Source: Blastocatellia bacterium
GTDB taxonomy: Bacteria; Acidobacteriota; Blastocatellia; Pyrinomonadales; Pyrinomonadaceae
Assembly: GCA_033856735.1 (NCBI GenBank)
Contig: JAWVEM010000025.1
Coordinates: 972-64,971, forward strand
Direction of reading: 5' to 3'
DNA length: 64,000 bases
In this document: in pieces, positions 6,307-28,446 of the stretch
How positions within the stretch are numbered: position 1 is the stretch's first letter
How the letters are laid out: each line of letters begins with the position of its first letter
Notes under the pieces: model-generated
Database searches by the model: none
What the model was told of the DNA's origin: nothing
What the model saw: only the letters and a program-made list of their open reading frames with translations
Program-made: the position numbers and the translations under genes

Positions 6307-6388
<82 letters not shown>

Positions 6389-6395: not shown

Positions 6396-7487
6396 TTACT
6401 TACGGCTGTCGTCATCGACAGCCGTTTTTTCGTTTGTGTCCAATTTGTGGACATTTTTCACAAAGCCTACTTGTTTGGTGAGTCGAACCGCGCGAATATA
6501 CCGTTCAGTAGTGGTCATGTCGCGGTGTCCCATAATCGTCTTGATGGTGAACGCATCGTAGCCGGCCATTGCCATCCGAGTGCAAAAGGTGGCTCTGAGA
6601 TCGTGCCATTCGAGATCGCGTATTTCCGCTAGTTGGCACGCTGTTGCGAACGCTGTCTTGATGTCAACGTAGGGCTTTTTCGTAGTCGGATTTACGAACA
6701 AATACTCGTCCGCTTTTTTCTTTGCGCAGAGTTTGCCGAGGATTGGTTTTACCCTTTCGTCCAAGACGTCCATTGGTATTTCTCGGTTCCGCTTGCCCTT
6801 TGTTTTGCTGGCGACTACCACACCGCGGACAAAGTCCACCTGGTCGCGTCGTAAATTCAGCTGCTCACGCTTCCTTAGACCTAAACCCAATGCGATGATC
6901 ACCATGTCATAGAGGTGTCGCCTTTTGCCGACTAAGGTGGACATCAGGGTCGTTTCCTCCTCCGGATCGAGAACGCGATAACGCTGATTGTCCAGCTTGA
7001 ACTTTTCTACGTGCGAACATGGATTGCGGTCGGCTTTGCCGAGCGAGATCGCTAGGGTGTATATGCGAGACAGCATCTCGAACTCCCGGTTAACCGATGC
7101 TGGCGCTCGCTCGCTGTCGTGTTTTGTGTTGGTTGCCAACCTTTTCGTTTTGAACCGTTCAATTTCGAGAGGCTGGACTTCCCGTAGTTGCCTGTTGCCG
7201 AAAAACTTTTTCAGAACGACTTTGCCGTACTCGTCGTTTTTCCACGACTTCTTGTTGGACTTGGCCCAGGGCATGTAGATGTCGTCAATGAAGTCATCGA
7301 CTTTCATTGTGCCGGTTTCTAGCATGCCAAAGGTTCCTTGATAGACGTCCTGCTTCAGTTTGTGTTCGGCTTGCTCAGCTTGCCTTTTGGTCCGAGCCTC
7401 AGGAATTGCTCCGCGGTAACGCACGCCACGCACTCTGAAGTAATAATGCCAGTGATTGCCTTTCGTACCCCTTTTGTAAACAGACAT
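6396..7487 (-). CDS. Tyrosine-type site-specific recombinase/integrase
   Basis: Catalytic-type motifs LGLGLRKRE, WHDLRATF (HxxR) and GHRDMTTTERY (His and Tyr). It lies directly inside attL. Confidence 0.9.
   Translation of the reverse strand: MSVYKRGTKGNHWHYYFRVRGVRYRGAIPEARTKRQAEQAEHKLKQDVYQGTFGMLETGTMKVDDFIDDIYMPWAKSNKKSWKNDEYGKVVLKKFFGNRQLREVQPLEIERFKTKRLATNTKHDSERAPASVNREFEMLSRIYTLAISLGKADRNPCSHVEKFKLDNQRYRVLDPEEETTLMSTLVGKRRHLYDMVIIALGLGLRKREQLNLRRDQVDFVRGVVVASKTKGKRNREIPMDVLDERVKPILGKLCAKKKADEYLFVNPTTKKPYVDIKTAFATACQLAEIRDLEWHDLRATFCTRMAMAGYDAFTIKTIMGHRDMTTTERYIRAVRLTKQVGFVKNVHKLDTNEKTAVDDDSRK
6402..6431 (+). terminator. Hairpin plus T-run just downstream of the reconstituted tRNA-Pro
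   Basis: ACGGCTGTCG-TCAT-CGACAGCCGT is a perfect 10-bp stem followed by TTTTTTCG. It overlaps the last codons of the minus-strand integrase. Confidence 0.6.
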
Positions 7488-8271: not shown

Positions 8272-8370
8272 AAAAATGCGAAGTTTTGCTTGGAGGTCTA
8301 GCAAGTCACCATTCTCAGTATAAGATCGGTTGAAATGTCGTGAGTATTCCGGTTAAAGATCGCGGTCGCT

Positions 8371-8616
8371 CTATGACTTAATTGTTCCGTACCAATACTC
8401 TCCATCAGGTGTGTACACTTCGAGTTTGCCGCCTGGATTCACCTTTCCGTAATAGTAGTTGTTCTTCCCATCATAAAATTCGAGCTTCCCATTGGACTTG
8501 AGTTTTCCGTAATAGTATTCGTTATCGCTGTTGTATAACTCAATATTTCCATTGTCTTTGATCTTGCCATAATAGTAATTGTTCCGAGGATCATAGAGTT
8601 CAAACTTTCTCGGCAT
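8371..8616 (-). CDS. Small Tyr/Gly-rich tandem-repeat protein (4 x ~19-20 aa), unknown function
   Basis: 81 aa with the repeating unit [FL]E[LFV]Y-x3-N-x-YYYGK-[ILV]-K-x-NG-x. GGAAAC lies about 8 nt upstream of the ATG. Confidence 0.5.
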   Translation of the reverse strand: MPRKFELYDPRNNYYYGKIKDNGNIELYNSDNEYYYGKLKSNGKLEFYDGKNNYYYGKVNPGGKLEVYTPDGEYWYGTIKS

Positions 8617-8763
8617 AATGTTTGTTTCCTTTCAATCTCAAGCAGTAACCGAACGCTAATTATCGATGCAGTTATCCCAGACAGCGCACGACCCAAGGCA
8701 TGTTCTGATCATGACGTATTTCTCGATAATCGGATGATGCCGTTCGCAAACGCTCATCGAGCC

Positions 8764-10002
8764 TTAGTTTCTTAAACGATGTACCTGCGCAAGCTGACGG
8801 TTGGGGAGCGAAGCGAGGATCTCGTTGATTCGGGTAGTAACTCCAGCGGTCTGTCTCGCAATGGCGGAATAGTGTTGCTCACGCCGTGTCCAGGAACCTT
8901 CGTGGTTGGACTTTTCTCTTTCCAATTCACCTCGTAATTCCTTTGTTCTGCTATCGATCACTTGTAAGGCGTTCTTGAACTCCTCGCTGCGGAGATAGCG
9001 ATACACTTCCTGGGTTTTTTCTGCTTTGCCCTGTTCGGATAGTTGAACGCGGGAAAGTTCCACAACCGCATCACGCAAAATGGACGCTAGATGATGCGCA
9101 AACTGTGGCGCTGCAACTATGACACCATCGACGATGCATATCCCCGACTGGCTTGGGGGAAGAACACGAGATACTAGGAGCCCACACCGCGTTCCTTGAA
9201 CTTCCATCGCTCGTTTCAGTTGGCGAACAAAGGCCGGCTGCCATTGATTTGTTCTCTTGCACTCATAAACTATGCAACCACAAGGCGCGCGGTCTTCAAT
9301 AATCATCTGGACGATATCGCCACCGCGCCGTTTTCGCTGAATATCGTCCATAGGGAACTGCCTTCGCAGGAGTTTTTCAAGCTCCTCTTCGCCTTCCGGG
9401 CCAAAATGGACACGATCGCGCGACTCCGCTCGTCGTTGCAGTTCCTCAATTTTTCGCTTCCAGATTTCAGCGTCGCGGTCACGACGTTCTTCAATCCTCA
9501 AACGTTTCTCCTCCTCTTTGCGAAGTTGTTGAGCAAAGGTTGCTTGAACCTTCCGAGCCGCCTCACGTTCAATGCGACGCTTCTCTTGGGTCGACATCGA
9601 ACTCTTTTCCGCCAATGCGGCTTTCATCTGTTTAGCACTCGACTGTAGTTCCTCTAATTCTTTACGAAGCTTGATCTCCGCCTTCTTAGCTTTCGCAGTT
9701 TCCTCAGCTGCGATCCGTTCTCGTGCGTTCTTCAACTGATTCCGTTCGCGAGCCAGTTTCTCTTCAGCTTGAGCTAGCTCTTTACGAAGCTTGATCTCCG
9801 CCTTCCTAGCTTTCGCAGTTTCTTCAGCTGCGATTCGTTCTCGCTCGCTCTTCAACTGATTCCGTTCGCGAGCCAATTTTTCTTCAGCTTGTGCAATCTC
9901 GTTTTTACGAGCGTCATCAATATGCAAGACGTTCTCATACTCTCGGCGTGTCAGAGAGGAGCCACAAAGCGGACAGTCGTAGGATTGATTATTATTTAGC
10001 AT
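8764..10002 (-). CDS. DUF2130-like protein: zinc-ribbon, long coiled coil and a C-terminal restriction-endonuclease-like domain
   Basis: CPLCGSSL at the N-terminus, then an ~150-aa charged coiled coil. The C-terminal FPMDDIQRKRRGGDIVQMI...CGCIVYECKRTNQW pattern matches the DUF2130 signature as I remember it. The start lies 2 nt after the upstream helicase stop. Confidence 0.65.
   Translation of the reverse strand: MLNNNQSYDCPLCGSSLTRREYENVLHIDDARKNEIAQAEEKLARERNQLKSERERIAAEETAKARKAEIKLRKELAQAEEKLARERNQLKNARERIAAEETAKAKKAEIKLRKELEELQSSAKQMKAALAEKSSMSTQEKRRIEREAARKVQATFAQQLRKEEEKRLRIEERRDRDAEIWKRKIEELQRRAESRDRVHFGPEGEEELEKLLRRQFPMDDIQRKRRGGDIVQMIIEDRAPCGCIVYECKRTNQWQPAFVRQLKRAMEVQGTRCGLLVSRVLPPSQSGICIVDGVIVAAPQFAHHLASILRDAVVELSRVQLSEQGKAEKTQEVYRYLRSEEFKNALQVIDSRTKELRGELEREKSNHEGSWTRREQHYSAIARQTAGVTTRINEILASLPNRQLAQVHRLRN
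9661..9900. repeat. Tandem 2 x 120-bp duplication inside the DUF2130-like CDS
   Basis: 9661-9780 versus 9781-9900 differ at 11 of 120 positions by my count. Each copy encodes a 40-aa unit: AQAEEKLARERNQLK.ERERIAAEETAKA.KAEIKLRKEL. Confidence 0.9.
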
Positions 10003-10004
10003 CG

Positions 10005-13000
10005 TCAGACCTCCAATTTACCAGCATTCTCCAACAGACCCATCCAATGGGGACATGAAACCCTGTCGGGACAGCGATCGCATGTACGCGATTTCAGTGT
10101 TGTCTTAAAGACGCCTTGTCCAAATTCTCTTAACTGATTAGTAAGACGAGAAGACTCTCTGTTGTAGTCAGCCGCTCTGTTAGTCCATTGATACGGATGT
10201 ACGGTTCCGTCTTCTCCCGAAAAGATAAAGGGTTGAACGTTAGGCTCGATCTCTCTGAGAATGACAAAGCCGACTCGCTGGGGTGGCTTCAGCCCGCCCC
10301 AAAGGAGACCTTGGCTCCGAACATTTTGAGCAATAGACTCCGGTCGGAAATTCAGTGCGATAGGAACGCCGCGCTCGTCGCGATAATGTGCTAACAGATC
10401 GAGACTCAACGGTGCACTGTTCTCACTACCGTCAATTATCAGGGTGAGCACTTCGGCCAATTTCGGCTCGGGCATGTATACTTCGGCGAAATTCAAAATA
10501 TAGCGCTCAGCTAGATTCGAATAAATCCTAGCGTGTGGATGATCGACAATGTCTTCGTCTGTGGGCCATAGTTTTGCGAGAATGGCCTTCGCCTGGACGG
10601 CACTCACTCTTCCTTGCTCTTTATGAGCTAGTTCAAGAATTGCTCTCAAAGCGTTTCGCACGACAGAGAAGAAGATTGGGTAAAGAGGTCTGAAATTCAG
10701 CGGAGGATTAATTTTAAGAAACTGATCTAGGTAGGTTCTTATGGCGCAAGAATCCTTATCGAGTGAACGTGCGGATAGTGGCCGAGCGGGTGAGCCGCCC
10801 CAAACGGGTCCCATAACAATTTCCTCGCTTCGAGGCGGCATTGGATTCAATTGAATAGTTGGAATTCCATGTATCGATTGCCATCGGTGTAATAGCGGTA
10901 CGATCCTTCGCGGCCGTGAATGCTCGGTGCCGCTCGCGGTGCTGGCGTAAGAAACGAAAAGAGCTTGCTGCGCACGAGTTGCGCCAACAAAAAATACTGA
11001 ATTTGATTGAGCCAGATCCGTGTCGGATGACGGCTGCCAAGAAGGGGGCAACCAACCATATTGGTTGGAAACCTGGCTAAGCGTTTGGCCGGCGACCGCG
11101 ACACACGGAAACTCCAGCCCTTTTGACGCGTGACACGTCATTACCCTGACGGCGTCGGACGTGGATCGCGGAGGAATAAGACACGGGGTGCTAGAGCACA
11201 GCGAAGCTCGGAAGTATTCGCCAAAAGCCTTCCTTGATTTCCAAGGCTCGCTTCCGGTATGTGTGAACCTATAAACAGCAGCTCTCGATAGCGAGGTCAC
11301 AATCTCATCCAGCATGAGTGATCGTGAAGCACCGACTTCCTTTTTAAGAATGGCTCGTAAGTAATCTCCTCCATCGAACAGGAAGATACACATCATCGTG
11401 AATGCATCACCACTGAAAGTCGCAGTTCTCAGAGCATTGATAGCGCGCCGGATGTCGGTCACTAACGTTTCACCGTCACCGAAATCGCTGTCAGCGAAGT
11501 TGCCATCCTTTTCGATTGTGCTAAGGACTTCCTTTATTACCTCGTTCGTTGTCGTTGCTCCAAAGCTCTCTAGTCCTAAAGCGCAGGCTAGTCTAGGAAG
11601 AGACGCCCGAGGGCGATTGACAAACGTCACAACCGCCGCAAGATCTCCCGCCGCACCCTCAGCAGTAATCAAGCCGTTCGTAGTTGCGCGAACTCCCAGA
11701 GCACCTAGCGTTAGAACGATATTCCTAACATCGACATTGCGTCTGGCTAACACTGCGATGTCACGAAACGGAATATCGGCGTCAAGCCATGACTTGACCT
11801 GATTTGCGATACCGGCTTGTTCTGCCTGGTCGGAGTCTGCGATCGCAACTATTACTGATGGTTCTCCGATAGCTACATGTTCAACTCCCGGTTTCCACCG
11901 TTCGCTGAAAACGGCATCAGTTCGGTCCGGCTGCTCAATTAACGTTGCCATCTGATTAGCTGCCTTAACGACTTGAGCACTCGAACGGTAGTTCGTGTTG
12001 AGGTAGAAGATCTTGGCTCCGCCAAAGTCACTCTCGAATTCATCAACATTCTCAGGGGCCGCTCCTCGGAATTGGTAGATCGCTTGTCGTGTGTCACCAA
12101 CGACCCAGGGCGGGTTCGTCTTAGCGTCACAAAGCAGGCACAGCAACTTCGAGACACTACGACTTACGTCCTGATACTCATCGACCATAATCCATCGATA
12201 CTTAGTCCTATAGGCTTCAACTATTGCCGGGTGCTGCTCAAGAATCTTTACAGGGAGTGCGATCAGATCTGCGAAGTCGATCAGCTTGGTGCTTTTCTTT
12301 GCCATCTCATACGCTTGAAAAAGCTTAAGAAATTGACTCGCACGTTCGTACTGTTCCACTTCCGCTACTGAGGGTTTCCACTTTTTTAGCTCCTCCGAAA
12401 GGTCTTCAGGAAATCGGACCCTGTCCTTCAGAAAACCAATGTGCTGAACTACTTCCTCGGCGGTTTCCGTAGGGGAATAGAGCTTCAGGATCTTTTCACA
12501 GTCGACGGTTCCCAGTAAGTTGGAAATCAGTTCCTGTTGTCCTGTTTCATCAATTACGGTTGCACTTGCATCGATGTCGAGGAAATGACCATGATGGTGA
12601 ATGAACGAAACGCCTAGTCCGTGAAACGTATTAACCTCTATTCGAGAAGCAATCTCAGACCCGAACTTTCTTTGAATACGATCCATTAATTCTTCAGCGG
12701 CATCATTACTGAAAGTCAATACAAGTATGGTTTCTGGGGAGGCGAAAAGCTCTTCGATCAGGAACTGAATCCTCGCTATCAACGTTGCCGTTTTGCCGGT
12801 GCCAGGACCAGCGTTGACCAATGCTGGGCCAGCAGTATACCGAGCAGCTTCGATCTGACTTGGGTCGGGTGTTACCGGTTTCTTCTCCTCCGGCGCCTCG
12901 CCGCCTAGCGTAATCTCATAAAGTGCCTCAGCCAGCTGAGCTTGAACTAAGTGGACTGGCAGGCCTAAGGCTGTTGCTAATGATATACTGCTACTATTCG

Positions 13001-13451
13001 ATTCGCTCTGCCACTTTTCAAACAGCTCATTGGCCGGACAAAGAAATTCGACCGCAAAACTGTTTGCTTCCGTCTCTTCCCTGCCGTGTCTGTTATATCT
13101 GGCCAGCGAGGGCGCACCATCATTCAGGTACATGGACCCGGCTAGCGTTTCTGGGGCCGTACAGCCGCGACGCAAGCGGGGATGCAACTCCAAATGACCG
13201 AGTTCATGAAGAATTATCATGAGCCGTTCATGCGAATCGCTATCAAGCTGTTTGTCATAGAAGAGAATCCCTTCCGCGGGTGAAACCTCGGCCCTACCTC
13301 CTTCAAGGAACGCCTTTGTCGTGGGCTCCAACTCTATTTCATAAACGTCAGAGAGATAGCGCACGACTCGCTCAAATAACTGGTCGGACGAGGTCCCAAT
13401 TATTTCTCGACATGAACGTGCCCGTTCTCTGGCATACCTAAGTGATCGCAT
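10005..13451 (-). CDS. ImmA/IrrE-type metallopeptidase - UvrD/PcrA-family SF1 helicase - Cas4/AddB-like nuclease fusion
   Basis: HELGHLELH (HExxH). Walker A AGPGTGKT, MVDEYQD, VVGDTRQAIYQFRGA, CHASKGLEFPCV and VGATRAQQ helicase motifs. The C-terminal CDRCPDRVSC (Cx2Cx5C) is typical of Fe-S PD-(D/E)xK nucleases. ATG at 13451 avoids overlap with the upstream gene; the alternative start is 13502. Confidence 0.85.
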   Translation of the reverse strand: MRSLRYARERARSCREIIGTSSDQLFERVVRYLSDVYEIELEPTTKAFLEGGRAEVSPAEGILFYDKQLDSDSHERLMIILHELGHLELHPRLRRGCTAPETLAGSMYLNDGAPSLARYNRHGREETEANSFAVEFLCPANELFEKWQSESNSSSISLATALGLPVHLVQAQLAEALYEITLGGEAPEEKKPVTPDPSQIEAARYTAGPALVNAGPGTGKTATLIARIQFLIEELFASPETILVLTFSNDAAEELMDRIQRKFGSEIASRIEVNTFHGLGVSFIHHHGHFLDIDASATVIDETGQQELISNLLGTVDCEKILKLYSPTETAEEVVQHIGFLKDRVRFPEDLSEELKKWKPSVAEVEQYERASQFLKLFQAYEMAKKSTKLIDFADLIALPVKILEQHPAIVEAYRTKYRWIMVDEYQDVSRSVSKLLCLLCDAKTNPPWVVGDTRQAIYQFRGAAPENVDEFESDFGGAKIFYLNTNYRSSAQVVKAANQMATLIEQPDRTDAVFSERWKPGVEHVAIGEPSVIVAIADSDQAEQAGIANQVKSWLDADIPFRDIAVLARRNVDVRNIVLTLGALGVRATTNGLITAEGAAGDLAAVVTFVNRPRASLPRLACALGLESFGATTTNEVIKEVLSTIEKDGNFADSDFGDGETLVTDIRRAINALRTATFSGDAFTMMCIFLFDGGDYLRAILKKEVGASRSLMLDEIVTSLSRAAVYRFTHTGSEPWKSRKAFGEYFRASLCSSTPCLIPPRSTSDAVRVMTCHASKGLEFPCVAVAGQTLSQVSNQYGWLPPSWQPSSDTDLAQSNSVFFVGATRAQQALFVSYASTASGTEHSRPRRIVPLLHRWQSIHGIPTIQLNPMPPRSEEIVMGPVWGGSPARPLSARSLDKDSCAIRTYLDQFLKINPPLNFRPLYPIFFSVVRNALRAILELAHKEQGRVSAVQAKAILAKLWPTDEDIVDHPHARIYSNLAERYILNFAEVYMPEPKLAEVLTLIIDGSENSAPLSLDLLAHYRDERGVPIALNFRPESIAQNVRSQGLLWGGLKPPQRVGFVILREIEPNVQPFIFSGEDGTVHPYQWTNRAADYNRESSRLTNQLREFGQGVFKTTLKSRTCDRCPDRVSCPHWMGLLENAGKLEV

Positions 13452-13455
13452 ACAT

Positions 13456-14019
13456 TTATTCTTTTTCCAGAAGATCGCGCCAATATCTCTTCGTATCTTC
13501 ACTCATGCCTGAACGTTCCAAGATTTGCTCCCAAGTAGTGGTGTCTTTCTTGTACGCCTCGTCTCTCGATGCGGCCCTTGGTGCTACAAAGGGCTGCTCA
13601 AACGCCCGGAGCGTAACGGTTGTTGGAATGTCCAGAGCTTCTTTTGCAACTTTTGCAAGAGCCTTCCGCCAAGTCTGCGGGACTGTTTTGGCATGACGAT
13701 TCAAATCCGAAATAAAAGTGACGCTAACTCCGAGCGCTCTTGCAATCGCCGCAGGCTTCAGATCGGTCCTCTTTTTATAAACGCCCAAGAGAGGTAGTGG
13801 CTCTTCTGTCAAGACTTCTCCGTCGGCGTCTGAATGAAGCAGCGATTGATTAAGCTGCCTCACCGCAACAATCGCCTTATTTGCGAGCTTGTTCGGATCG
13901 ACACCATTCTGACTAAGCGCTTCGTTCAGTTCTTCATCCGTCCATTCTGCTGACGCGCTAAGCCTTCTGATTCGATCAAGTATTTCTGCACTCGACTCTG
14001 TCCGTTTCTTTCCCATCAT
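13456..14019 (-). CDS. HTH DNA-binding protein (possible ImmR-like partner of the ImmA domain)
   Basis: LKPAAIARALGVSVTFISDLNRH is a helix-turn-helix. The ATG at 14019 follows AGGAAGTGAA and lies 1 nt after the upstream stop. The longer ORF running to 14163 overlaps the upstream gene. Confidence 0.6.
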   Translation of the reverse strand: MMGKKRTESSAEILDRIRRLSASAEWTDEELNEALSQNGVDPNKLANKAIVAVRQLNQSLLHSDADGEVLTEEPLPLLGVYKKRTDLKPAAIARALGVSVTFISDLNRHAKTVPQTWRKALAKVAKEALDIPTTVTLRAFEQPFVAPRAASRDEAYKKDTTTWEQILERSGMSEDTKRYWRDLLEKE

Positions 14020-14020
14020 T

Positions 14021-14692
14021 TCACTTCCTTCTAGCCTTTGTGGCCTGGTTAGCTTCCATTTGGTTGCGGATAGCAGCAGCTTTCCGGTCGAGGCGCTTGG
14101 AAGCGCTGTAAATATCCTTAATTGGTATGCCGGTGGCCTTGGCGATTTCGCCGGGTTGGTCACAACCTGCGCGCATGGCGCGAAGAATTCTGGTCAACTG
14201 GTCGTCTTCGCTGCAGGCTTTGGCCAGTTCATCGAGGACACGTTCTTCGCGCTGAGCCGTTTCCGCATCAATCAATAGCTCCTCCGGCGTTCGAGCGGAC
14301 GCAATGAGCCATTCCCTTTCGGGTCGGCGCTCTTTAGAGCCAGCTTCCCAGTCCATTTCTGTTTGTCCGGTGACATCGAAGGTTGCACTCAAGAGTGTAT
14401 TGTCTTTGCTTGTGGACAAGTGATAGAGGAGGCTATCAATCACGTCCATCAGATACTTCTTGAGGTCGGGGTCTTTTTGCGGTTCCCATTCACGCTCTCC
14501 TGAATAAAGCTTTTCAAATGCCAGAGAAACGATTGAGTCAACGGTCTCTCCTTTTGGTAATTCAACCGAATTACGGGTTCTCCAAAAAAGCTTATTGCTG
14601 ACACTAAGGGCGTACCAGCCGAGTTCTTTGGCTAGGCGACCTATTTGCTCATTAGTTAATTTCGCAAGGTGGGCTCGTGCTTCTTCTTTCAA
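14021..14692 (-). CDS. Sigma-70/ECF-like regulatory protein
   Basis: Region-2-like TVDSIVSLAFEKLYSG...LKKYLMDVIDSLL and region-4-like PGEIAKATGIPIKDIYSASKRLDRK. The assignment is by pattern only. Confidence 0.5.
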   Translation of the reverse strand: MKEEARAHLAKLTNEQIGRLAKELGWYALSVSNKLFWRTRNSVELPKGETVDSIVSLAFEKLYSGEREWEPQKDPDLKKYLMDVIDSLLYHLSTSKDNTLLSATFDVTGQTEMDWEAGSKERRPEREWLIASARTPEELLIDAETAQREERVLDELAKACSEDDQLTRILRAMRAGCDQPGEIAKATGIPIKDIYSASKRLDRKAAAIRNQMEANQATKARRK

Positions 14693-14845
14693 AATATCCT
14701 CCCGCTTCTGTCCTTATTGACTATTGCCGACGAAACGTTTGGTTTTGCCATCTAGAGAGACGGAAAAAACCGCCGAGCCAGCGGCATTAGAGTCCGGGGA
14801 CGAAAGGTCCCTGAATTTTAACTTGAATGTGAGGAACGAGAGCAT

Positions 14846-15211
14846 ATGGAAAACCAAAACGACATCGACAGTAAGGCCGCGACAGCAAACCCGCCTGAAA
14901 CAGAGGTTCTCGACGAACTAATCGACGAGATAATCGACCTTGAAGAATATGCGCAAGCCAATCGCAAGCCGCCGCGCGCCCGCGGTTACCGAATACGCAT
15001 CGACAAAACCAAGTATGAAGTCAAAGTGCCGAGCATGACAGGACGTGAGTTGCTGACGCTTGCAGGTAAATCGCCAGTGAGCAACTACATGTTAACGCAA
15101 AAGCTTCGAGGCGGACAGACACGTCGGATCGAGCTGGATGAAAGCGCCGATTTCACGACGCCCGGCGTTGAGCGATTCATGACTCTGCCTCTTGACCAAA
15201 CAGAGGGCTAG
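14846..15211 (+). CDS. Ubiquitin-like (multiubiquitin-family) protein ending in Gly
   Basis: Acidic N-terminus followed by a beta-grasp-like YRIRIDKTKYEVKVPSMTGRELLTLAG segment. The protein ends ...LDQTEG-stop. It is the first gene of the E2/E1/JAB operon. Confidence 0.65.
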   Translation: MENQNDIDSKAATANPPETEVLDELIDEIIDLEEYAQANRKPPRARGYRIRIDKTKYEVKVPSMTGRELLTLAGKSPVSNYMLTQKLRGGQTRRIELDESADFTTPGVERFMTLPLDQTEG

Positions 15212-15214
15212 CAA

Positions 15215-15613
15215 ATGCGCAGGCAATTCATGCTCCCGGAGACCGACAATGCTTTTCTAGCAACGCTCGGTCTCCCTTGGGAGACCATCATAGAGAACAA
15301 TGCGCGTTGGCTGATCCTGCACGACTATGAACCGCCAGAGGGTTATGACCATAGCCCTGTGTTCCTTGCTATCCGAATCAGCCCAGGATATCCCGACACG
15401 CAGCTTGACATGGTCTACTTTTCACCTGCTCTGGCGCGACTTGATGGGCGAGCGATCGGGGCGCTCTCGACTACCGGTCTTGACGGAAAGACGTATCAAC
15501 AATGGTCGAGACACAGGACTGGACTGAATCCTTGGCGACCTGGGGAAGATGACCTTTCTTCTCATCTTGAATTGGTAAAGCACTGGCTCGAACGCGAGTT
15601 GAGGAAGAACTAA
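15215..15613 (+). CDS. Prokaryotic E2-like protein (Prok-E2_E-like)
   Basis: 132 aa with ...PEGYDHSPVFLAIRISPGYPDTQLDMVYFSP..., which resembles the 6E-system E2 family. It starts 3 nt after the Ubl gene stop. Confidence 0.6.
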   Translation: MRRQFMLPETDNAFLATLGLPWETIIENNARWLILHDYEPPEGYDHSPVFLAIRISPGYPDTQLDMVYFSPALARLDGRAIGALSTTGLDGKTYQQWSRHRTGLNPWRPGEDDLSSHLELVKHWLERELRKN

Positions 15614-15615
15614 AA

Positions 15616-16998
15616 ATGAACACAGTACTTCGATTAACAGCCGACCAACATTCTCAGCTCAACAATCACTTGTTTCCGGGAGACGGAAACGAAGCTGCCG
15701 CCGTAATTCTCTGCGGTCGTCGAGCGGGTAATGAGCGACACTGTCTGACCGCCCGAATGATTTTCCCCATACCGTATGATCAATGCTCGATCCGAACGCC
15801 CTGGCGCATAACTTGGTCGACAGAAACACTCTTGCCAGTTCTCACCGAAGCTGCAAGAGGAGACCTGGCAATCGTTAAGATTCATAGCCACCCAGGGGGA
15901 TTCGAGGAATTCTCTGAAACCGATGACAAGTCCGATCGAGACCTATTCCTCTCAGCATATGGCTGGTTCGATAATGAAGCGCCACACGCCAGCGCCATTA
16001 TGTTGCCTGACGGCCGAATCTTCGGCCGCGTGGTTGGGCCGGCAGGGGAATTCACTTCGTTCTCGTCGATTTCGGTCATCGGCGACGATATCCGATTTCT
16101 CGAACCGCAGCGATGTGAAACAGAGTTGCCAGATTACACTCTAAGACATCGACAAATCTTCGGAGCAGGTACTACTGCCTTGTTGCGCCGGTTGACAGTT
16201 GCAGTAATTGGAGTGTCGGGCACGGGAAGTCCCGTCGTTGAACAGCTCGCGCGTCTCGGCGTTGGCAAACTCATACTTATCGATCCGGATCACATCGAGG
16301 AAAAGAATCTGAACCGAATACTCAACGCCAGAATGGAAGATGCGTGCGAGAAGCGCTTTAAAGTCGACGTGATGGAACGAGCTGTCAGGAAAATGGGGCT
16401 AGGTACTGAAGTCGTTACTTTCTCACGTAACCTCTATGATTCCGACGTGGTTAAAGCGGTCGCTCAGTCCGATGTCATCTTCGGGTGCATGGACGGCGTT
16501 GATGGACGACATCTACTTAACAGACTCGCCACATTTTACCTAATACCCTACTTTGACGTTGGCGTGAAACTCGAGAGCGATGGACGGGGTGGAATCGACC
16601 AGGTCTGTGGCACGGTGCACTATCTACAACCTGGCCGCTCTAGTCTCTTCAGTCGAGGCATGTACACATTAGAGCAGGTACGAGCCGCTGGACTCCGCCG
16701 AACGGATCCGCGGGCGTATGAGGAACAGCTCAAAGAAAAATACATAACCGGCGTTATGGAGGATCGTCCGGCAGTGATTAGTGTCAACATGTTCTTTGCG
16801 AGTCTCGCTGTGAATGAATTTCTCGCAAGACTCCACCCGTATCGTGACGATGAGAACAAGCATTTCTCAACTTACCGCTTTAGTCTGTCACAGGCCCAAA
16901 CCTACAAAGAGGAAGAAGGCGAGGTCTGCCGACTCCTTATGCGGCACGTGGGGCGTGGAGATATTACTCCTCTACTAGACATGCCGGAGCTAGGCTGA
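15616..16998 (+). CDS. JAB/JAMM deubiquitinase-like domain fused to a ThiF/E1-like adenylating domain
   Basis: HSHPGGFEEFSETD matches the JAMM pattern HxHx7SxxD. VAVIGVSGTGSPVVEQLARLGVGKLILIDPDHIEEKNLNR is an E1 Rossmann nucleotide-binding motif. Confidence 0.8.
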   Translation: MNTVLRLTADQHSQLNNHLFPGDGNEAAAVILCGRRAGNERHCLTARMIFPIPYDQCSIRTPWRITWSTETLLPVLTEAARGDLAIVKIHSHPGGFEEFSETDDKSDRDLFLSAYGWFDNEAPHASAIMLPDGRIFGRVVGPAGEFTSFSSISVIGDDIRFLEPQRCETELPDYTLRHRQIFGAGTTALLRRLTVAVIGVSGTGSPVVEQLARLGVGKLILIDPDHIEEKNLNRILNARMEDACEKRFKVDVMERAVRKMGLGTEVVTFSRNLYDSDVVKAVAQSDVIFGCMDGVDGRHLLNRLATFYLIPYFDVGVKLESDGRGGIDQVCGTVHYLQPGRSSLFSRGMYTLEQVRAAGLRRTDPRAYEEQLKEKYITGVMEDRPAVISVNMFFASLAVNEFLARLHPYRDDENKHFSTYRFSLSQAQTYKEEEGEVCRLLMRHVGRGDITPLLDMPELG

Positions 16999-17363
16999 TG
17001 CGCTTGCGATTCGCCAAGCAGATGTTTCGCCGACTCTGGCAACGAGTTTTCGGAGATCCGACGCTACTAAAGGCGAGGGCAGTAGAAGAGTTGCCTGATC
17101 ATTTGAAACCGGGGATTGTGTACGTCGTTGGCGAAGGCGGATATTTGTGGTTTGTCGCCATGATCTGTCCTTGTGGATGCAACGAGACATTGCACATGAA
17201 TCTTATGTCTCACAGTCGGCCTCGATGGGACGTTATCAAGCATAAAGACGGAAGTGTTACGTTAAATCCTTCCATATCGCGATTGACTGGTTGCCATAGC
17301 CATTTTTTTCTCCGACGGGGGCGAATCGTTTGGTGGCACGCTCCGCCAAAAGAGGGCGCGTAG
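16998..17363 (+). CDS. Cys-rich small protein (DUF6527-like), possible metal-binding/E3-like component
   Basis: CPCGC...H...CHSH cluster. The start overlaps the E1 stop (TGATG). Confidence 0.55.
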   Translation: MRLRFAKQMFRRLWQRVFGDPTLLKARAVEELPDHLKPGIVYVVGEGGYLWFVAMICPCGCNETLHMNLMSHSRPRWDVIKHKDGSVTLNPSISRLTGCHSHFFLRRGRIVWWHAPPKEGA

Positions 17364-17581: not shown

Positions 17582-18153
17582 ATTGCCACTTTGCGAACTT
17601 GGTAAGAACACAAGATGTTGTGTTTTGATCGGGAAATCGCTGATCCGTTTTCAAAATCGGGTCTGATAATTACCTATTATGTTAAAAACGCATCATCTGA
17701 GAAGCGCGGGCAATACAAAATCCGATTGATCGGCTTAACAGAAAATCTTCCGACTGTCCGCTAGACCATTTAGTTTTCGGATAGCGTGACGATTTCTTCC
17801 GGCATGGCTTCAGAAGCGTAAATGACAATGAGTCATCTTTAACGCCAAGGTATTGACAGCTCGCACAAAAGATTTTAGCCTCTCGGAGTAGGTTCTACGA
17901 AATGTCGTCCTTGCGGACTTGCATACAAAGCTAATCACAGTACGTTCAGTCTCCTAACCTGCTCTTCAATGGCCCGCAATGACACTTTCTAGCCCTCTCG
18001 GCATGCCGCGAGATCATTAGGGTATTTGTCCACGATACGGCTCGTCTAGTTAGTGCACGCATTCTGTTCACGTTGAGCCTCTGTGCTACGAGACTCGCGG
18101 ATACGGGTAGCCGGGAAGATTGCTGCCGAACACCAGGAGGTAGACATTCACAC

Positions 18154-21100
18154 GTGACTGCCGCTCAGCAGACTATAGCCGCTCTCATTCAGTCGCTAGG
18201 GAGTGCCGACTCACATACTCGTCGACGAGCAGCGGAGGCGCTTGCACGTTTGGGCAAGACTGCCGTGCCGGCTTTGATGAATGCGCTCAAGCATCAGGAT
18301 GCGCGCGTTAGAGCTGGGGCGGCCGACGCTACCAGAAGAATGGGTGCCAAAGCATCGGCGGTAATTCCGCTTCTGGTTGAAAGGTTAAAAGATAGAGATT
18401 CTGAGGTCGCCTCAAACGCGGCTCTTGCCCTAGGCTCTTGTGGTTCAGCGTCACGAGTGGCAATTCCGGCGCTGATCGAATTCCTGAAGACCGACCACAC
18501 TGATTCGGCGATTAAGGCTCTCAAACAACTCCGCCCGCTTTCTGAACCTGCGCTAATCGATGCGATCGGCGATAGCGACTACCTACTGAGCAAACGTGCG
18601 GCACTGGCACTCTGGGGTGAAACCCCGGAACGGGTGTCAATCCTAATTGAGTCTATGCAGAGCCCTGACTTGCGCGTGCGCAGAGGTGCTACCAGTTTCC
18701 TCGGGGCCATACGGGGAATCGGCACAGAAGCGGTATCAGCACTGCTTAATGCGTTGACTGAACCGGATGCAAAAGTTCGTTGTTACGCCGCTCAATCTCT
18801 AATCGGAAGAGAAAACCATTCCGACTTGGTTGTCTCTGCTTTGACAAGCGTTCTTGGCGATGAGAGTGAAAATGTTCAAGTTGCCGTTGTCCAAGCCATT
18901 GGGACCTATGGTACGGCTGCCGAACCTGCTGTTCCTGAGCTCATTAAGCTTCTAGATCGTGAGGCTGGCCCAAAGATTTATCGAGAGGTTGCTCAAGCGC
19001 TCAAGACGCTTGGTCCAGTTGCAGTTCCAGCGCTTATCAACACTCTCAGGGAGCCGGATAATAAAGCAGGGCCTAGGGCAACTGAGGTACTCGAAGAAAT
19101 TGGCGCGCGCGGGAGTGCGGGCATTCCTGCGCTCGTCGAGGCACTTAAGGATGAGAACGCAACCGTACGCAGCAGGGCCTCTACCTGCTTGGCGGCAATT
19201 GGATCGAAGACAGTCCCATTGCTAATCGAGTTGCTAGGCGATCCCCAACAGCCATTCGTCGAAGATGCGAAGGAAGCCCTTCATGCAGTTAAACGCAAAT
19301 TGGCTCGCCAGGAAGAGGATCTGAAGATCGCTACTCTATGGGCGGAAAATCTTCCCTCCCTGGAAGCCCATGACGAAAACCTGAATTATGCTTATTTCGG
19401 GAATCGTGCGTTTGCGGACCCAACTGTTCGACTGGGTCTAGATGCCAAGACTAAGCGCGAACTACTTGAGGAACTAAATCATACTTCCGGGCTCCAGCTC
19501 GAAATTGACCAGGCTTTGGCAACCTCAGAGGAAGCTCGCGCCCGCACTTCGTTGGACCAACCAAAACCCCCTCCGCCCCGTTATACTGATATCAGGTTTT
19601 ACGGAGAGGATAGGTTTCGTGGGAGAATTAAGGAACTCTCGGCGGATCAGCCTCTACAGGTGAAGGGTTGGTACGAGATTGAATTTGCGATTCGCAAGAG
19701 TCCCGTCGGCGATCTTGTAGAGGGAAAACGGGAGCCCCTCCGTGAAACGGGAAAACCTCATGATGTCGAACTTCTGGTTACAGCCGAAAGCCCGGACTTC
19801 ATTATCGAGAAGGCGGTCCAAAGATTGGTGCTGCCGCCGGAAGGAGATTCAACCGCGCCAGCCTACTTCAGGGTTTCTCCAAAAAGAGCCACAGTGAGCG
19901 TGAACAAACGATCACGCATTGATTTTCGGGTATTCTATAAATTCAACCTCCTTGCCGTTACTCGCTCAAGAGTTGAGGTAGTCGAAGAAGGCGAAAATGC
20001 GGCCATTTCAATTTTTGGATCTCCCAACGCCCGCACAGTCGAGCACGTTCGGCTCGAAAGTGATTTGTCAGCTGTTTACGATCTGCTGCCGCGTGAGATG
20101 CACATCGACATCACCCGAAACGACGATAACTCATTCAAATTTACTTTTACCTACTTGAAGGGTTTGGAAGGTGAAAAACAGGACGATGATCTTGTCTTAA
20201 CTGCTTCAATCCATTTGCAGGAACAGGCCCTTAAAGGTGCCGTCTCGAACATCAGAAAAACGTTATTGGGAATAGTGATGACCGGATCGTACGGCGAATT
20301 TGTGGAAGGGACGGATGAAATCGAATTCGCCCGACAGATGAATCTAATCGGTCGTGATGGCGAAGCCTTGTGGACCACTCTCTTCAAGCTCGACAAGAAC
20401 AGTCCAATGTACAAAATCGGCGAATTCCTCGCGGAGAATCCGTTGAAGCCAGGCTCGCTTATTCAGGTATCTACCGCGCCCGAGGCATCAGACCTCGTCT
20501 TTCCGTGGAATCTGCTGTACGACAAGAAGATTCCGGATACCGTAAGCGAGGACGTTGTTCCCGCGCTCGACGGCTTTTGGGGTCTGCGTTATATCATCGA
20601 ACAAAGATTGCCGGATACCTGGGCAAAGGATGAGCCGATTGTTTATGACGACGACTTCGAGGTTACCTTTATGCTTTGGAACTTTGTTCAAGCAAAAGGT
20701 CAAGAGGATTTCCTAAAAGAACTGCTGGCCAAAGATCGAGGAACTCTGAATACTGGCGAGTCGATCAAGAATGCTAAGGTTGCGCGTCGTTGTCTGGCCG
20801 ATTGTAAAAGCCAGATTCTCTATTTTTTCACCCACGGGCACACCAGCATTCCCGCCTCAAACATCGGCGGACTCACTTTAGCGGACGTCAAATCTCTCTG
20901 CAGTGCCATCCCGAACGATTCACCGCAGCATGCGGCTTGGGAAGCTCGCCTTGAAGATTTACAGCAAAATCAGTTTGCTTCTAACGATTCTTGGATCGAG
21001 CTAAGCGTGGGTAGACTGTCTCTCATGGAGAATCTATATAGGGAGGACGTCAACCTGCGAAATAGTCCAATCGTCTTTTTGAACATGTGCGAGTCGGCAC

Positions 21101-21402
21101 AGGTCACGCCCGATCTCTCGAAACCTAGCTTCATACACTTTTTCATCAATCGAGACGCCCGCAGCGTGATCGGGACTGAATGTTCGATCACGCCGCTCTT
21201 TGCGGACAGTTTTGCTCGCAGCCTCTTCCCGTCTCTAATGCGGGGGGATCAGATTGGGAAGATCCTTCTTGATCTCCGCCGGGACTTCATGACCAAAAGA
21301 AATCCTCTCGGGCTGGCGTATACGTTGTTCGGTTCAGCAACAGTAAGACTTGAACCGTCCCCAGTTCAAGATGGAGTCACAGGTTCTGAAAAGGAGCCTT
21401 AG
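18154..21402 (+). CDS. HEAT-repeat / CHAT-domain (caspase-fold) protease
   Basis: About 400 aa of PBS-lyase-type HEAT repeats (D..VR..AA.ALG). The C-terminal CHAT dyad is ILYFFTHGH (His) and VFLNMCESA (Cys). GTG at 18154 lies 13 nt after AGGAGG; the alternative is TTG at 18073. Confidence 0.8.
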   Translation: MTAAQQTIAALIQSLGSADSHTRRRAAEALARLGKTAVPALMNALKHQDARVRAGAADATRRMGAKASAVIPLLVERLKDRDSEVASNAALALGSCGSASRVAIPALIEFLKTDHTDSAIKALKQLRPLSEPALIDAIGDSDYLLSKRAALALWGETPERVSILIESMQSPDLRVRRGATSFLGAIRGIGTEAVSALLNALTEPDAKVRCYAAQSLIGRENHSDLVVSALTSVLGDESENVQVAVVQAIGTYGTAAEPAVPELIKLLDREAGPKIYREVAQALKTLGPVAVPALINTLREPDNKAGPRATEVLEEIGARGSAGIPALVEALKDENATVRSRASTCLAAIGSKTVPLLIELLGDPQQPFVEDAKEALHAVKRKLARQEEDLKIATLWAENLPSLEAHDENLNYAYFGNRAFADPTVRLGLDAKTKRELLEELNHTSGLQLEIDQALATSEEARARTSLDQPKPPPPRYTDIRFYGEDRFRGRIKELSADQPLQVKGWYEIEFAIRKSPVGDLVEGKREPLRETGKPHDVELLVTAESPDFIIEKAVQRLVLPPEGDSTAPAYFRVSPKRATVSVNKRSRIDFRVFYKFNLLAVTRSRVEVVEEGENAAISIFGSPNARTVEHVRLESDLSAVYDLLPREMHIDITRNDDNSFKFTFTYLKGLEGEKQDDDLVLTASIHLQEQALKGAVSNIRKTLLGIVMTGSYGEFVEGTDEIEFARQMNLIGRDGEALWTTLFKLDKNSPMYKIGEFLAENPLKPGSLIQVSTAPEASDLVFPWNLLYDKKIPDTVSEDVVPALDGFWGLRYIIEQRLPDTWAKDEPIVYDDDFEVTFMLWNFVQAKGQEDFLKELLAKDRGTLNTGESIKNAKVARRCLADCKSQILYFFTHGHTSIPASNIGGLTLADVKSLCSAIPNDSPQHAAWEARLEDLQQNQFASNDSWIELSVGRLSLMENLYREDVNLRNSPIVFLNMCESAQVTPDLSKPSFIHFFINRDARSVIGTECSITPLFADSFARSLFPSLMRGDQIGKILLDLRRDFMTKRNPLGLAYTLFGSATVRLEPSPVQDGVTGSEKEP

Positions 21403-21493
21403 CCACCGAACGAGCGCCACGCTTGATCTGATTGATCTCAGCGCGGAGCAGGAGTCATTCAATCAACGTAACTTCACAGACAAAGGAGAAAGC

Positions 21494-21955
21494 ATGAGTG
21501 ATTTAGCACAAGCGCGGTCCGCCGTGGCGGACTTTCTGGAAGCAAACCTCAATGAAGACCAATTGTTTGAAAAACTTGGAGTGCGAGAGAAAGTGAGGGA
21601 ACAAGACCCTGCATTGGTCAGCAGTTATTCCGACGACCCAGCCTGGGACGCCAAGGTTATGGGACCGCTTGACGACGTCCGTAGCTTTGGTCGAATCTTT
21701 TTCAAAAAGCTCAATACCCAGTGTTATGGCATTGCGTGCGGCTCGGATACGGCGGACACTGAAGAAAGGAAACAGTTAATGGCTTCCTTTGGTTTTGGCA
21801 AGACGGAAGTGGCAGCCGCACTGGCGGCGCTTTTGGTCGCTCAGCTCGCACTCGCTCCGGCTGTGGCCACCGTCGTGGCATTGTTAATTGTCAAGCTGGT
21901 TTTCAGAAATGCTTTGGGAGCTATGTGCGAAGTCTGGAAGAGCAAGATATCCTGA
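21494..21955 (+). CDS. Hypothetical protein with a C-terminal TM helix
   Basis: ATG at 21494 is preceded by AAGGAG. The TM segment is VAAALAALLVAQLALAPAVATVVALLIVKLVF. The longer ORF from 21350 overlaps the CHAT gene. Confidence 0.5.
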   Translation: MSDLAQARSAVADFLEANLNEDQLFEKLGVREKVREQDPALVSSYSDDPAWDAKVMGPLDDVRSFGRIFFKKLNTQCYGIACGSDTADTEERKQLMASFGFGKTEVAAALAALLVAQLALAPAVATVVALLIVKLVFRNALGAMCEVWKSKIS

Positions 21956-22278
21956 CCTCCAGGGTATTAGTTCTTGAGTGCGGTAATTTCTTTGTCGCGA
22001 GGGTATTGTCAGATTAAACGTCTGAAGATGGAACGAAACTGTTCGCGCGCCAAACTCCACCAAGAAGTTCTTTCGTAAGCTATAAAGAGGTTGCAGTTTG
22101 TTCCCCGGATGCTCGTTGCAGACAAGCTGCACCTAAATTTTTATAGACCGTTAATCAACCATGACGAGAAGCGGATTCAGCCTTTACTTCATAGTGGGCC
22201 TCCTCCATGAAGTGGACATTACCCTTTGGATCGGCTGATCCATATGTCTTGGCAAAGATCCAAGCAACTCCACCTCTT

Positions 22279-23157
22279 TCATGTTGTGCGGCTTTTGATG
22301 ATCCGGAAGTCATAGAGTGCCACGCTCGCGGCAACGCCGTCCTCTGAAATGCCATACAATTCAATCTGATAATCACCGGTGGAAAGAAACTCCGAGGGAA
22401 TCCGTAATACAACAACGTTCACGCCCGACTCCGATTTCAGATTGTCGATGGTGAACAGTTCACGACCTTCCACGGTACGAACAACAGTACGATACTTGGC
22501 ATACTTGACAGCAGAAGAGAACTCAAGTTGAAGCTTAACAAGCTTGTTCTCTTTATTAAGAACGACCTTTCTTAGTTCGCCTCCCTCTCGTAGACGAGTC
22601 GGCTGAAGTGTCAGTGCCATTGAAACCTGATCAGTTGTGACTAACGGACGACTGTTGAGTTCCGCCAATTGACGTTCGATCCTCGCGCGTTCTTCATCGA
22701 CAGGAGCGGTCGCCTTCGGCAATATCAATCGGGTAATTTGGGGGGCGAAAAAAACAAAGAGGAGAATTGCCGCGAAAGCAAGTGTCACCCAAAACTTGTG
22801 TCTTTGAAAAAAACCTAGTGCGTTTCGCCATCGGTCTGCCACGGCCCAGGATTCGTGGCCAATCATTGGTTGCAGTTCTTTACCTTCAGCCACGTAGACT
22901 TCAAAAGCTTGGGCGATCATTAACTTTTGGCGTCTCTCATCATCTAAGAGAAAATTTTTCTGAAAGTCTTCACGTTCGCTTTCCGAAAGCCCATCAAAGA
23001 CGTAATCATCGATAAGATCGTCCTGAGCAACCCCCAGTCTTTCCGCGAACGCTTTGTCACAGACAATGCGTTCATCGACTTCCTCCTGTAATGGCTCCTC
23101 GAGTTCGGCGAGGAGGTACTTTCTCATTATGGTTTGTTCATTATCCGGCTCGATCAT
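22279..23157 (-). CDS. Anti-sigma factor-like single-pass membrane protein
   Basis: N-terminal YLLAELEEPLQEEVDERIV.D..F...L pattern, as seen downstream of ECF sigma genes, and one TM helix (FWVTLAFAAILLFVFFAP). ATG at 23157 follows GGAGGGA; the alternative start is 23184. Confidence 0.6.
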   Translation of the reverse strand: MIEPDNEQTIMRKYLLAELEEPLQEEVDERIVCDKAFAERLGVAQDDLIDDYVFDGLSESEREDFQKNFLLDDERRQKLMIAQAFEVYVAEGKELQPMIGHESWAVADRWRNALGFFQRHKFWVTLAFAAILLFVFFAPQITRLILPKATAPVDEERARIERQLAELNSRPLVTTDQVSMALTLQPTRLREGGELRKVVLNKENKLVKLQLEFSSAVKYAKYRTVVRTVEGRELFTIDNLKSESGVNVVVLRIPSEFLSTGDYQIELYGISEDGVAASVALYDFRIIKSRTT

Positions 23158-23186
23158 CGACGGTCCCTCCGGCGGGATTCTCATCC

Positions 23187-23753: not shown

Positions 23754-23831
23754 TGTTCAGGCAGTGTTCTTTGGTTTCGTGATCGGCCTCGAAACAAGGA
23801 TAGCACCGCAAGCCATAACGGCAACGCGAAT

Positions 23832-27410: not shown

Positions 27411-27415
27411 GCTGA

Positions 27416-28311: not shown

Positions 28312-28350
28312 CGCAATAAGAAAGCAGCGGTAGGGATGCCCACCGCTGCT
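28312..28350 (-). terminator. Intrinsic terminator for the minus-strand small gene
   Basis: AGCAGCGGT (28323-28331) pairs with ACCGCTGCT (28342-28350). On the minus strand the stem is followed by TTTCTTATT. Confidence 0.6.
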
Positions 28351-28446
28351 TCGAGGTACATGGCTTTAAGGAACTGACGAATCCGCAAAAACAAAAACCG
28401 ACGTCTTCGGTTCGACTGTTGACTATACGATGAACGGACGCAATTT

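Follow-up and report, generated by a model that had tools for sequence, protein, structure and literature searches.

Gene content of the block

What four closely packed genes encoding, among other things, a metallopeptidase, a helicase and a nuclease-family protein are doing next to a ubiquitin-like (Ubl) conjugation operon is the question raised by positions 8764 to 14692 of a 64,000-nucleotide stretch of DNA from a Blastocatellia bacterium (contig JAWVEM010000025.1; the whole stretch is referred to below as the window). The genes, here called g1 to g4 in the order of transcription, had been described in an initial annotation as a candidate defence module of one four-gene operon with two nucleases. 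Our analysis points to a different division: g1, g2 and g3 form a widely conserved cassette which on balance is likely to be a DNA-sensing, protease-coupled switch of the adjacent Ubl operon, here of the Bub type, and thus a helicase-fused variant of the CapH+CapP regulators with a sigma factor of its own. The features of the block are as follows.

14021..14692, minus strand: g1, divergent sigma-70-like protein of 223 aa; starts at TTG behind a GGAGG Shine-Dalgarno sequence
13456..14019, minus strand: g2, probable XRE-type helix-turn-helix (HTH) protein, 187 aa, candidate peptidase substrate (CapH/DdrO analogue)
10005..13451, minus strand: g3, 1148-aa fusion of M78 peptidase, UvrD helicase and Fe-S RecB-type domain
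12897..13451, minus strand: g3 residues 1-185, CapP/IrrE-like M78 zinc peptidase followed by a three-helix linker
10902..12869, minus strand: g3 residues ~195-850, UvrD/PcrA-type superfamily 1 (SF1) helicase
10005..10799, minus strand: g3 residues ~885-1148, RecB/AdnA-type Fe-S "iron-staple" nuclease-fold domain without the catalytic acid
8764..10002, minus strand: g4, 412-aa coiled-coil protein of the DUF2130 family containing a PD-(D/E)xK nuclease motif; accessory gene that varies between loci

The junctions were read directly from the sequence. The g1 gene ends ...AAG TGA (stop codon at 14023-14021) and one base further on g2 opens ATG ATG GGA, with its first ATG at 14019 and AGGAAG upstream. 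The TAA of g2 (13458-13456) is separated by 4 nt from the ATG of g3 at 13451, a start whose "MRSL" matches 20 of 20 aligned homologs, and g3 ends GTC TGA (10007-10005), 2 nt before the ATG of g4 at 10002, which has GGAGG 7 nt upstream. The four minus-strand open reading frames, their coordinates and the gaps of 1, 4 and 2 nt given in the initial annotation are thereby confirmed from both the reading-frame list and the junctions, as is the 153-bp spacer between the TTG start codon of g1 at 14692, with GGAGG in front, and the ATG at 14846 of bubA, the first gene of the divergent operon.

Conservation of the cassette and its link to Ubl operons

A set of distant relatives was obtained by scanning one genome per species, which gave 80 loci whose open reading frames were called and searched with profiles; counts below refer to the 60 non-redundant loci with a full-length g3 and enough flanking sequence. 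Neighbourhoods of close relatives of g3 came from seven contigs. Genes resembling g1 and g2 were found directly upstream of g3 on the same strand at 57 of the 60 loci, and g2 alone at 3, and both genes were likewise present directly upstream of g3 in every one of the close relatives. The trio adjoins a Bub operon at 32 of the 60 loci and a four-gene operon identified by PADLOC models (E 1e-53 to 1e-168) as BilABCD at 20, together 52. As an internal control, nine matches of ~720 aa comprising only a UvrD helicase without the M78 domain had none of the trio or Ubl neighbours. What is conserved is therefore g1-g3, not the unit of four that the initial annotation had drawn, and the "6E-type operon" that it had listed as a separate neighbour is the conserved partner of the trio.

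The loci span at least ten phyla and include members of the Acidobacteriota, Alpha-, Beta- and Gammaproteobacteria, Chloroflexota, Gemmatimonadota, Latescibacterota, Patescibacteria, Planctomycetota and Verrucomicrobiota, among others. A full-length g3 homolog is also encoded in 86 plasmid records, where RefSeq labels the products of g1, g2 and g3 "hypothetical", "response regulator" and "UvrD-helicase domain-containing", respectively. PADLOC returned no match for g1 or g2 and only generic GajB/UvrD matches for g3, in line with the earlier remark that the genes correspond to no named system; with such non-descript labels and no PADLOC call, the module is invisible to current annotation and to PADLOC.

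The partner operon in the window (14846..17363, plus strand) encodes the following proteins, all four Pfam families being above cut-off.

14846-15211, plus strand: BubA (Multi_ubiq, 1.8e-17)
15215-15613, plus strand: BubB, E2 (Prok-E2_E, 1.7e-35)
15616-16998, plus strand: BubCD, JAB-E1 (Prok-JAB and ThiF)
16998-17363, plus strand: BubE/DUF6527 (DUF6527, 1.6e-20)

The gene set is similar to Type I as defined previously (PMC11601596), but BubA and BubB are unfused. The trio is divergent from the Bub operon in the window and in four related loci (L081, L082, L088 and L091). In Proteobacteria it is co-directional with the Ubl gene and lies ~80 bp upstream of it; on plasmids, trio and Ubl operon move together as a six- or seven-gene cassette. 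Some loci of the window clade have the trio divergent from a non-Ubl operon, or by itself. At two of these (L085, 7315-8559; L090, 7437-8598) no Ubl operon is present and the trio is divergent from a conserved pair encoding an uncharacterized protein of ~250 aa and a single-stranded DNA-binding protein (SSB), a pair that the cassette may also control. At one trio-linked Bil locus (L014), an HNH endonuclease gene lies directly behind bilD (10982-11422).

The g3 protein: peptidase, helicase and a RecB-like domain

More than 1000 homologs of g3 were found, many of them full-length at ~1140 aa. Single-sequence searches of the Protein Data Bank (PDB) with the N- or the C-terminus of g3 gave nothing useful, and NCBIfam and PHROGs returned only generic helicase and metalloprotease matches; family profiles alone were informative for these two regions. 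An alignment of 21 homologs showed HELGH, GPGTGKT, VDEYQD, C902, C1124, C1127 and C1133 to be invariant. The AlphaFold model of g3 has a mean predicted local distance difference test score (pLDDT) of 85.4 and a predicted template modelling score of 0.86.

Pfam places Peptidase_M78 at residues 62-170, just above the cut-off (23.2 bits against 22). A profile of the first 200 residues, built from 35 diverse homologs in which H82, E83, H86 and E126 (the HExxH motif and the downstream glutamate ligand) are invariant, matched CapP best among PDB entries (7t5t_A, E = 4.2e-6), with IrrE second. Cys97 lies 11 residues past the second histidine, in a loop modelled with low confidence (residues 97-118, pLDDT < 50), and a cysteine ~8-11 residues past the second HExxH histidine is found in the window clade and in the Bil-linked clade. 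Judged from the model, this loop possibly resembles the "cysteine switch loop" of CapP, which is present in only about one third of CapP proteins (10.1101/2022.04.27.489752).

The central part is a UvrD helicase (UvrD-helicase 3.7e-61; UvrD_C 4.9e-22) with intact motifs (Walker A GPGTGKT, 215-221; motif II DEYQD, 424-428). Foldseek searches with the model returned UvrD, PcrA and Rep on top (E ~1e-31), followed by AdnAB, AddAB and RecBCD. A profile of the last 300 residues of the family matched mycobacterial AdnA over its nuclease domain (E = 1.3e-6), and C902, C1124, C1127 and C1133 are conserved at 98-100% in 70 homologs. However, the AdnA segment "VVVDLKTGK", containing D934, the position changed in the structures of nuclease-dead AdnA(D934A), aligns opposite "vvrrvRtgk" in the g3 family: where the (D/E)xK motif calls for an acid, most of the 70 homologs have arginine and the window has asparagine (N1034-F-R1036). 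The C-terminal domain is thus predicted to be an Fe-S RecB fold that very probably is not a nuclease. As the catalytic acid has been lost, the nuclease label of g3 is doubtful, and with it the idea of a two-nuclease module. The other domain assignments of the initial annotation largely stood, those of g3 as M78 and UvrD and of g4 as DUF2130 through Pfam, and those of g1 and g2 only through family profiles.

The g3 protein is similar to AdnAB, AddAB and RecBCD in combining an SF1 UvrD-type motor with a C-terminal RecB fold and a 1+3 cysteine Fe-S pattern. It differs from them as a single polypeptide with no partner subunit, a peptidase fused to the N-terminus of the motor, the substituted aspartate, and a regulatory or immune genomic context rather than a recombination-repair locus. 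The similarity to the GajB subunit of Gabija is high in the search scores (E = 3e-69 against the GajB UvrD-helicase models) but is confined to the generic helicase core, and GajB has neither the M78 nor the Fe-S domain; moreover, PADLOC finds no GajA OLD-family ATPase/TOPRIM nuclease among g1, g2 and g4. A UvrD-like helicase associated with plasmid cost in P. aeruginosa (PA1371/PA1372, PMC4410645) was also considered, and the paper contains no link to the g3 family.

The g2 protein and its relation to CapH

Evidence for an XRE-type HTH domain in g2 comes from several weak similarities: a below-significance Pfam match to HTH_31 (0.008), a match of the family profile to the XRE protein 3kxa in the PDB (0.04), and Foldseek hits which, while none is significant, are to XRE HTH proteins only (HigA, C.BclI, DdrO and the N-terminal domain of CapH). 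The AlphaFold2 model (mean pLDDT 74.9, with means of ~89-95 over the HTH blocks) consists of an N-terminal helical region, a confident five-helix core (residues 77-141) and a C-terminal helix pair with helices at 163-185. Residues 146-156 (PRAASRDEAYK), located before this pair, are conserved and modelled with low confidence. The g2 proteins of the window clade and of the distant clades are homologous (hhalign 96.9%, E = 1.5e-10), and g2 and g3 occur as a natural fusion of ~1370 aa in P0053 and its relatives (BLASTP 6e-11).

CapP is an M78 peptidase that, when activated by single-stranded DNA, cleaves the HTH repressor CapH, so that the neighbouring immune operon is switched on (10.1101/2022.04.27.489752; 10.64898/2026.05.16.725639). 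For Bub and Bil operons, control by CapW, CapH+CapP or CapK+CapS encoded beside their promoters is already established (PMC11601596, PMC13373217). The trio shares with CapH+CapP, and with the comparable IrrE/DdrO and ImmA/ImmR pairs, an HExxH peptidase with glutamate as third ligand whose best match is CapP itself, a helical linker after the peptidase, the cysteine-bearing loop in part of the g3 family, and a position beside the promoter of an immune operon; on weak sequence and fold scores, g2 may in addition correspond to the small XRE-HTH protein with a C-terminal helical pair encoded alongside. Unlike CapP, which has a GAF domain binding single-stranded DNA, g3 has no detectable GAF domain and continues from residue 195 with ~960 residues of UvrD helicase and catalytically dead Fe-S RecB-like domain. 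Further differences are the ~70 extra residues at the N-terminus of g2, which place its HTH centrally instead of N-terminally, the sigma-like g1 as a constant third member, and a layout that in most clades puts the genes ahead of the regulated operon on the same strand, where CapH+CapP is divergent. In the literature searched, the helicase-fused M78 peptidase with sigma-like and HTH genes beside Bil and Bub is not described; CapH+CapP-type control of such operons was known.

The g1 protein as a sigma-like factor

The g1 protein of the window gave no significant Pfam match of its own, and a single-sequence PDB search was equally uninformative. A search of protein representatives found homologs in 689 clusters; among 60 aligned relatives, Sigma70_r2 was detected in 9 (best 3e-7) and Sigma70_r4_2 in 2, and the family profile matched sigma-H best among PDB entries (3mzy_A, E = 2.6e-4) nearly end to end (positions 48-212). 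In a broad alignment, 27 of 40 sequences contained Sigma70_r4_2 and the profile matched FliA and sigma-E at ~1e-7. Homology between the window-clade and the proteobacterial g1 was considered and rejected (hhalign probability 5%), each being sigma-like independently. In one close relative (L082), the g1 position is held by a canonical extracytoplasmic function (ECF) sigma factor with Sigma70_r2. The spacer of that locus (8420-8580) contains a palindrome, CGTGACA-N17-TGTCACG, instead of the bipartite motif of the clade described below, which suggests non-orthologous replacement of the sigma factor together with its site.

The arrangement is reminiscent of ECF sigma/anti-sigma pairs under regulated proteolysis, in that a gene for a small sigma-70-like protein lies immediately upstream of its partner, a protease is part of the circuit, and a bipartite promoter recurs at the target operon and in some loci also at the sigma gene. 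In contrast to those systems, g2 is a probable XRE HTH protein with no recognizable anti-sigma domain, and the protease is a cytoplasmic, helicase-fused M78 enzyme and not a site-1/site-2 membrane protease, no transmembrane segment having been identified.

Promoter-like elements ahead of the Ubl operon

The 153-bp spacer between g1 and bubA contains two features.

14724..14751, plus strand: bipartite promoter-like element TTGCCGA-N16-GCCAT, pointing at bubA
14795..14813, plus strand: 7-bp hairpin in the bubA 5' leader, flagged as terminator-like and supported by RNAalifold

Visual alignment of the window-clade intergenic regions gave the consensus TGCCR-N14-TTTNGCCRT, with identical spacing in the window, L081 (three copies), L088 (two copies), L091, L085 and L090. 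The element is aimed at the divergent operon whether that is Bub or, as in L085 and L090, the pair of the ~250-aa protein and SSB. The loose pattern TTGCC-N17-19-GCCRT was uninformative beyond intergenic regions, and a scan of 8300-15000 for the sigma-70 consensus found no more sites than in shuffled sequence. In L081, whose g3 is 78% identical to that of the window, a segment of ~130 bp bearing the element is repeated three times in tandem between g1 and bubA (8368-8760).

A proteobacterial counterpart, TTWCCGG-N15-17-CGAT, was found in 37 of 52 g3-Ubl spacers of co-directional loci (~80 bp), at a density of 4.6 per kb compared to 0.16 per kb over the whole loci, and 12 loci have a second copy upstream of g1. 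The two copies have the same locus-specific variants of the -10 part (GGTTAT in L030, GGGAT in L018, GCGAC in L065), as expected of a private sigma factor reading its own promoter and that of its target. Matches to the promoter pattern inside the g1 coding sequence, ~215 bp before g2 in many loci, were ascribed on inspection to the codons of "LP(D/E)" in sigma region 4 and not to an internal promoter.

The leader hairpin is conserved in three orthologous leaders, with 7 pairs of which one is compensatory. Located downstream of the promoter-like element and ahead of the ribosome-binding site, and trailed by a T-rich run, it could act in attenuation or in RNA stability.

A proposed switch for the Ubl operon

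The switch that we propose would begin when g3, through its UvrD motor and its dead Fe-S RecB-like domain, engages single-stranded DNA or DNA ends arising from phage replication or DNA damage. This engagement would release the CapP/IrrE-like peptidase from auto-inhibition, in the window clade possibly by way of the Cys97 loop. The peptidase would then cut g2, a plausible site being the conserved motif, predicted to be flexible, just before the C-terminal two-helix element, and cleavage would inactivate g2 either as a repressor or as an anti-sigma factor. The g1 protein could then direct RNA polymerase to the bipartite promoter ahead of bubA and, in co-directional loci, also to that ahead of g1.

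Several observations weigh against this reading. The trio has no adjacent Ubl operon at 8 of the 60 loci. The HTH assignment of g2 is based on low scores (0.008 in Pfam; E 0.15 to 3 in Foldseek), its N-terminal 70 residues match no assigned domain, and the data fit a repressor and an anti-sigma factor equally. As described above, the window g1 has no significant Pfam match and no detectable homology to its proteobacterial counterpart. The window-clade motif was derived by eye from seven sites, which come from six related loci; when loosened, the pattern is not significant in the window alone (2 found, 1.2 expected), and the 153-bp spacer has no second copy that could serve as a promoter for g1 itself. 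An ATP-driven motor of 1148 aa would be a costly sensor, and g3 may do more than sense. Finally, the DNA signal, the cleavage of g2 and the sigma-dependent transcription are all inferred, and these make up every biochemical step.

The linkage of trio and Ubl operon would also be expected if the trio were an integral working part of Bil and Bub, with the helicase and Fe-S domain acting on phage DNA or on stalled replication or repair intermediates while the remainder recruits or licenses Ubl conjugation, or with the M78 domain processing a component. This is consistent with the near-obligate association (52/60), with the proteobacterial plasmid cassettes in which the trio precedes the Ubl gene by ~80 bp on the same strand, with the retention of the ATPase motifs throughout the g3 family, and with the role of Bub still being unknown (PMC13373217). 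We nevertheless consider it unlikely: BilABCD by itself protects E. coli when expressed from an inducible promoter (10.1101/2022.05.11.491447), so the trio is not needed for effector chemistry, and Ubl processing is already performed by JAB peptidases (PMC10557695). In addition, a separate conserved promoter-like element lies between g3 and the Ubl gene, two of the three trio proteins are of DNA-binding or transcription type, and in the window clade the trio can be divergent from a non-Ubl operon or stand alone.

Bil operons are proven anti-phage Ubl conjugation machines that have been studied under artificial promoters only, and the Bil papers leave the upstream genes unmentioned; both this and the protection given by BilABCD alone are in keeping with the proposed switch. 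For Bub operons, function is undemonstrated and the trigger unknown (PMC13373217). A cassette ahead of both operon types is a concrete candidate for their native control; it supplies a defined promoter element and a protease-substrate pair, and thereby a route to the conditions that turn Bub on. If the proposed switch is correct, it would carry the principle of CapP and IrrE, namely a response set off when DNA activates the proteolysis of a repressor, over to an ATP-dependent motor as sensor and an alternative sigma factor as output. We put forward more tentatively the wider idea that an SF1 helicase with a dead Fe-S nuclease domain, loading on aberrant DNA and acting through proteolysis of an HTH partner and a private sigma factor, might be the native trigger of Bil and Bub across many phyla and plasmids, and so a new class of immune-operon controller; it would then also provide the missing activating signal for Bub operons. 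Full-text searches found no paper in which Bil, Bub or 6E operons are connected with a sigma factor or with an M78 peptidase fused to a helicase. The Bub preprint reports 168 operons associated with "CapH+CapP", counted by manual inspection (PMC11601596), and part of these may be the present cassette, unlabelled.

The DUF2130 gene as a passenger

The g4 protein belongs to DUF2130 (Pfam, E = 9.4e-30), a family classed in the PD-(D/E)XK superfamily (PMC3424549); a single-sequence PDB search gave nothing useful. Its putative nuclease motif is intact, D229, E247 and K249 being conserved in 100%, 86% and 100% of 37 homologs. With 412 aa it is longer than most of its relatives (~371 aa), and its coiled coil (residues 37-116) contains a tandem duplication of 40 residues in which AQAEEKLARERNQLK begins at 37 and again at 77.

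A DUF2130 gene occurs near the trio at only 3 of ~70 loci, namely the window, a close relative (L088) and a distant one (L036). The gene following g3 varies even among g3 proteins that are 47-78% identical, as listed below.

Window and L088: DUF2130 protein
L081: NOV_C protein
L091: YdjM
L082 and L085: none

The co-occurrence of homologs elsewhere, by which the initial annotation had proposed to judge its four-gene unit, thus breaks down at g4, whose homologs with 51-66% identity are encoded in unrelated defence islands. In L092 (3892-9539), a homolog 66% identical to g4 lies between a Gabija-like pair of ATPase and UvrD helicase and AbiTii; the gene is again beside a UvrD helicase, but that of another system. 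In L093 the homolog is near RmuC, WYL-domain and helicase genes, and in L094 it stands by itself next to genes for an nSTAND protein and a ParE toxin. In our reading, g4 is a PD-(D/E)xK nuclease gene that moves independently; in the window lineage it has joined the cassette transcript, but it is no member of the cassette.

These findings bear on the view that g1-g4 constitute an autonomous anti-phage or anti-plasmid system with g3 and DUF2130 as effectors and g1 and g2 as regulators. Such a system would account for the tight spacing of the genes (1, 4 and 2 nt) and their Shine-Dalgarno sequences, the intact D229...E247-x-K249 of DUF2130, the recurrence of the g1-g4 order in L088, the position of the block inside a 35.6-kb defence-type island (see below), and the DUF2130 homolog behind the Gabija-like ATPase and UvrD pair. 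It is nonetheless improbable given the rarity of DUF2130 beside the trio and its replacement by NOV_C, YdjM or nothing in close relatives, the gap of 125 bp between g3 and DUF2130 in L088, the lost acid in the nuclease fold of g3, and the lack of a GajA-like partner at the locus according to PADLOC. Of the original proposal, the defence-related nature of the block holds; the evidence goes against the self-contained module of four genes and two nucleases.

The surrounding integrative island

The block is located close to one edge of an island marked by two features.

6309-6385, plus strand: tRNA-Pro (ARAGORN), one edge of the island
6396-7487, minus strand: tyrosine integrase (Pfam Phage_integrase), beside tRNA-Pro

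The last 23 bases of tRNA-Pro (6363-6385) are repeated exactly at 41957-41979, with 0 such repeats expected by chance, and the G+C content is ~0.50 between the repeats compared to 0.56 beyond them. The tRNA, the integrase, the exact repeat and the lower G+C content together place g1-g4 inside an integrative island of 35.6 kb. Its cargo also includes HEAT-repeat, TPR-CHAT, TIR, ThiF and DUF4407 proteins, as is typical of conflict systems.

Since pairing of an M78 peptidase with an HTH protein is characteristic of ImmA/ImmR, the trio could be thought of as the ImmR/ImmA-type module of this island, governing excision or transfer on DNA damage, with the adjacency to Bub incidental. The block lies 1.3 kb from the tyrosine integrase at tRNA-Pro in an island bounded by 23-bp repeats, and in L088 and L089, too, the trio has an integrase close by. 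This explanation is very improbable, as the trio is tied to Bil or Bub in chromosomes and in the 86 plasmid records irrespective of the presence of a neighbouring integrase, the promoter-like element faces the Ubl operon, and the trio in the window has neither excisionase nor transfer genes next to it. Control of the Ubl operon remains our preferred explanation of the cassette.

Large conflict-type genes are found at 18073-34176, among them those for the HEAT-repeat (1109 aa), TPR-CHAT (1192 aa) and TIR (1190 aa) proteins. A second ThiF/E1-like gene of the island is situated at 32908-34176. Next to the TPR-CHAT gene, a small protein (23187-23753) contains a domain similar to sigma region 4. 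Downstream of g4, an open reading frame of 81 aa (8371-8616, minus strand) with no family match consists of repeated "N-x-YYYGK" units.

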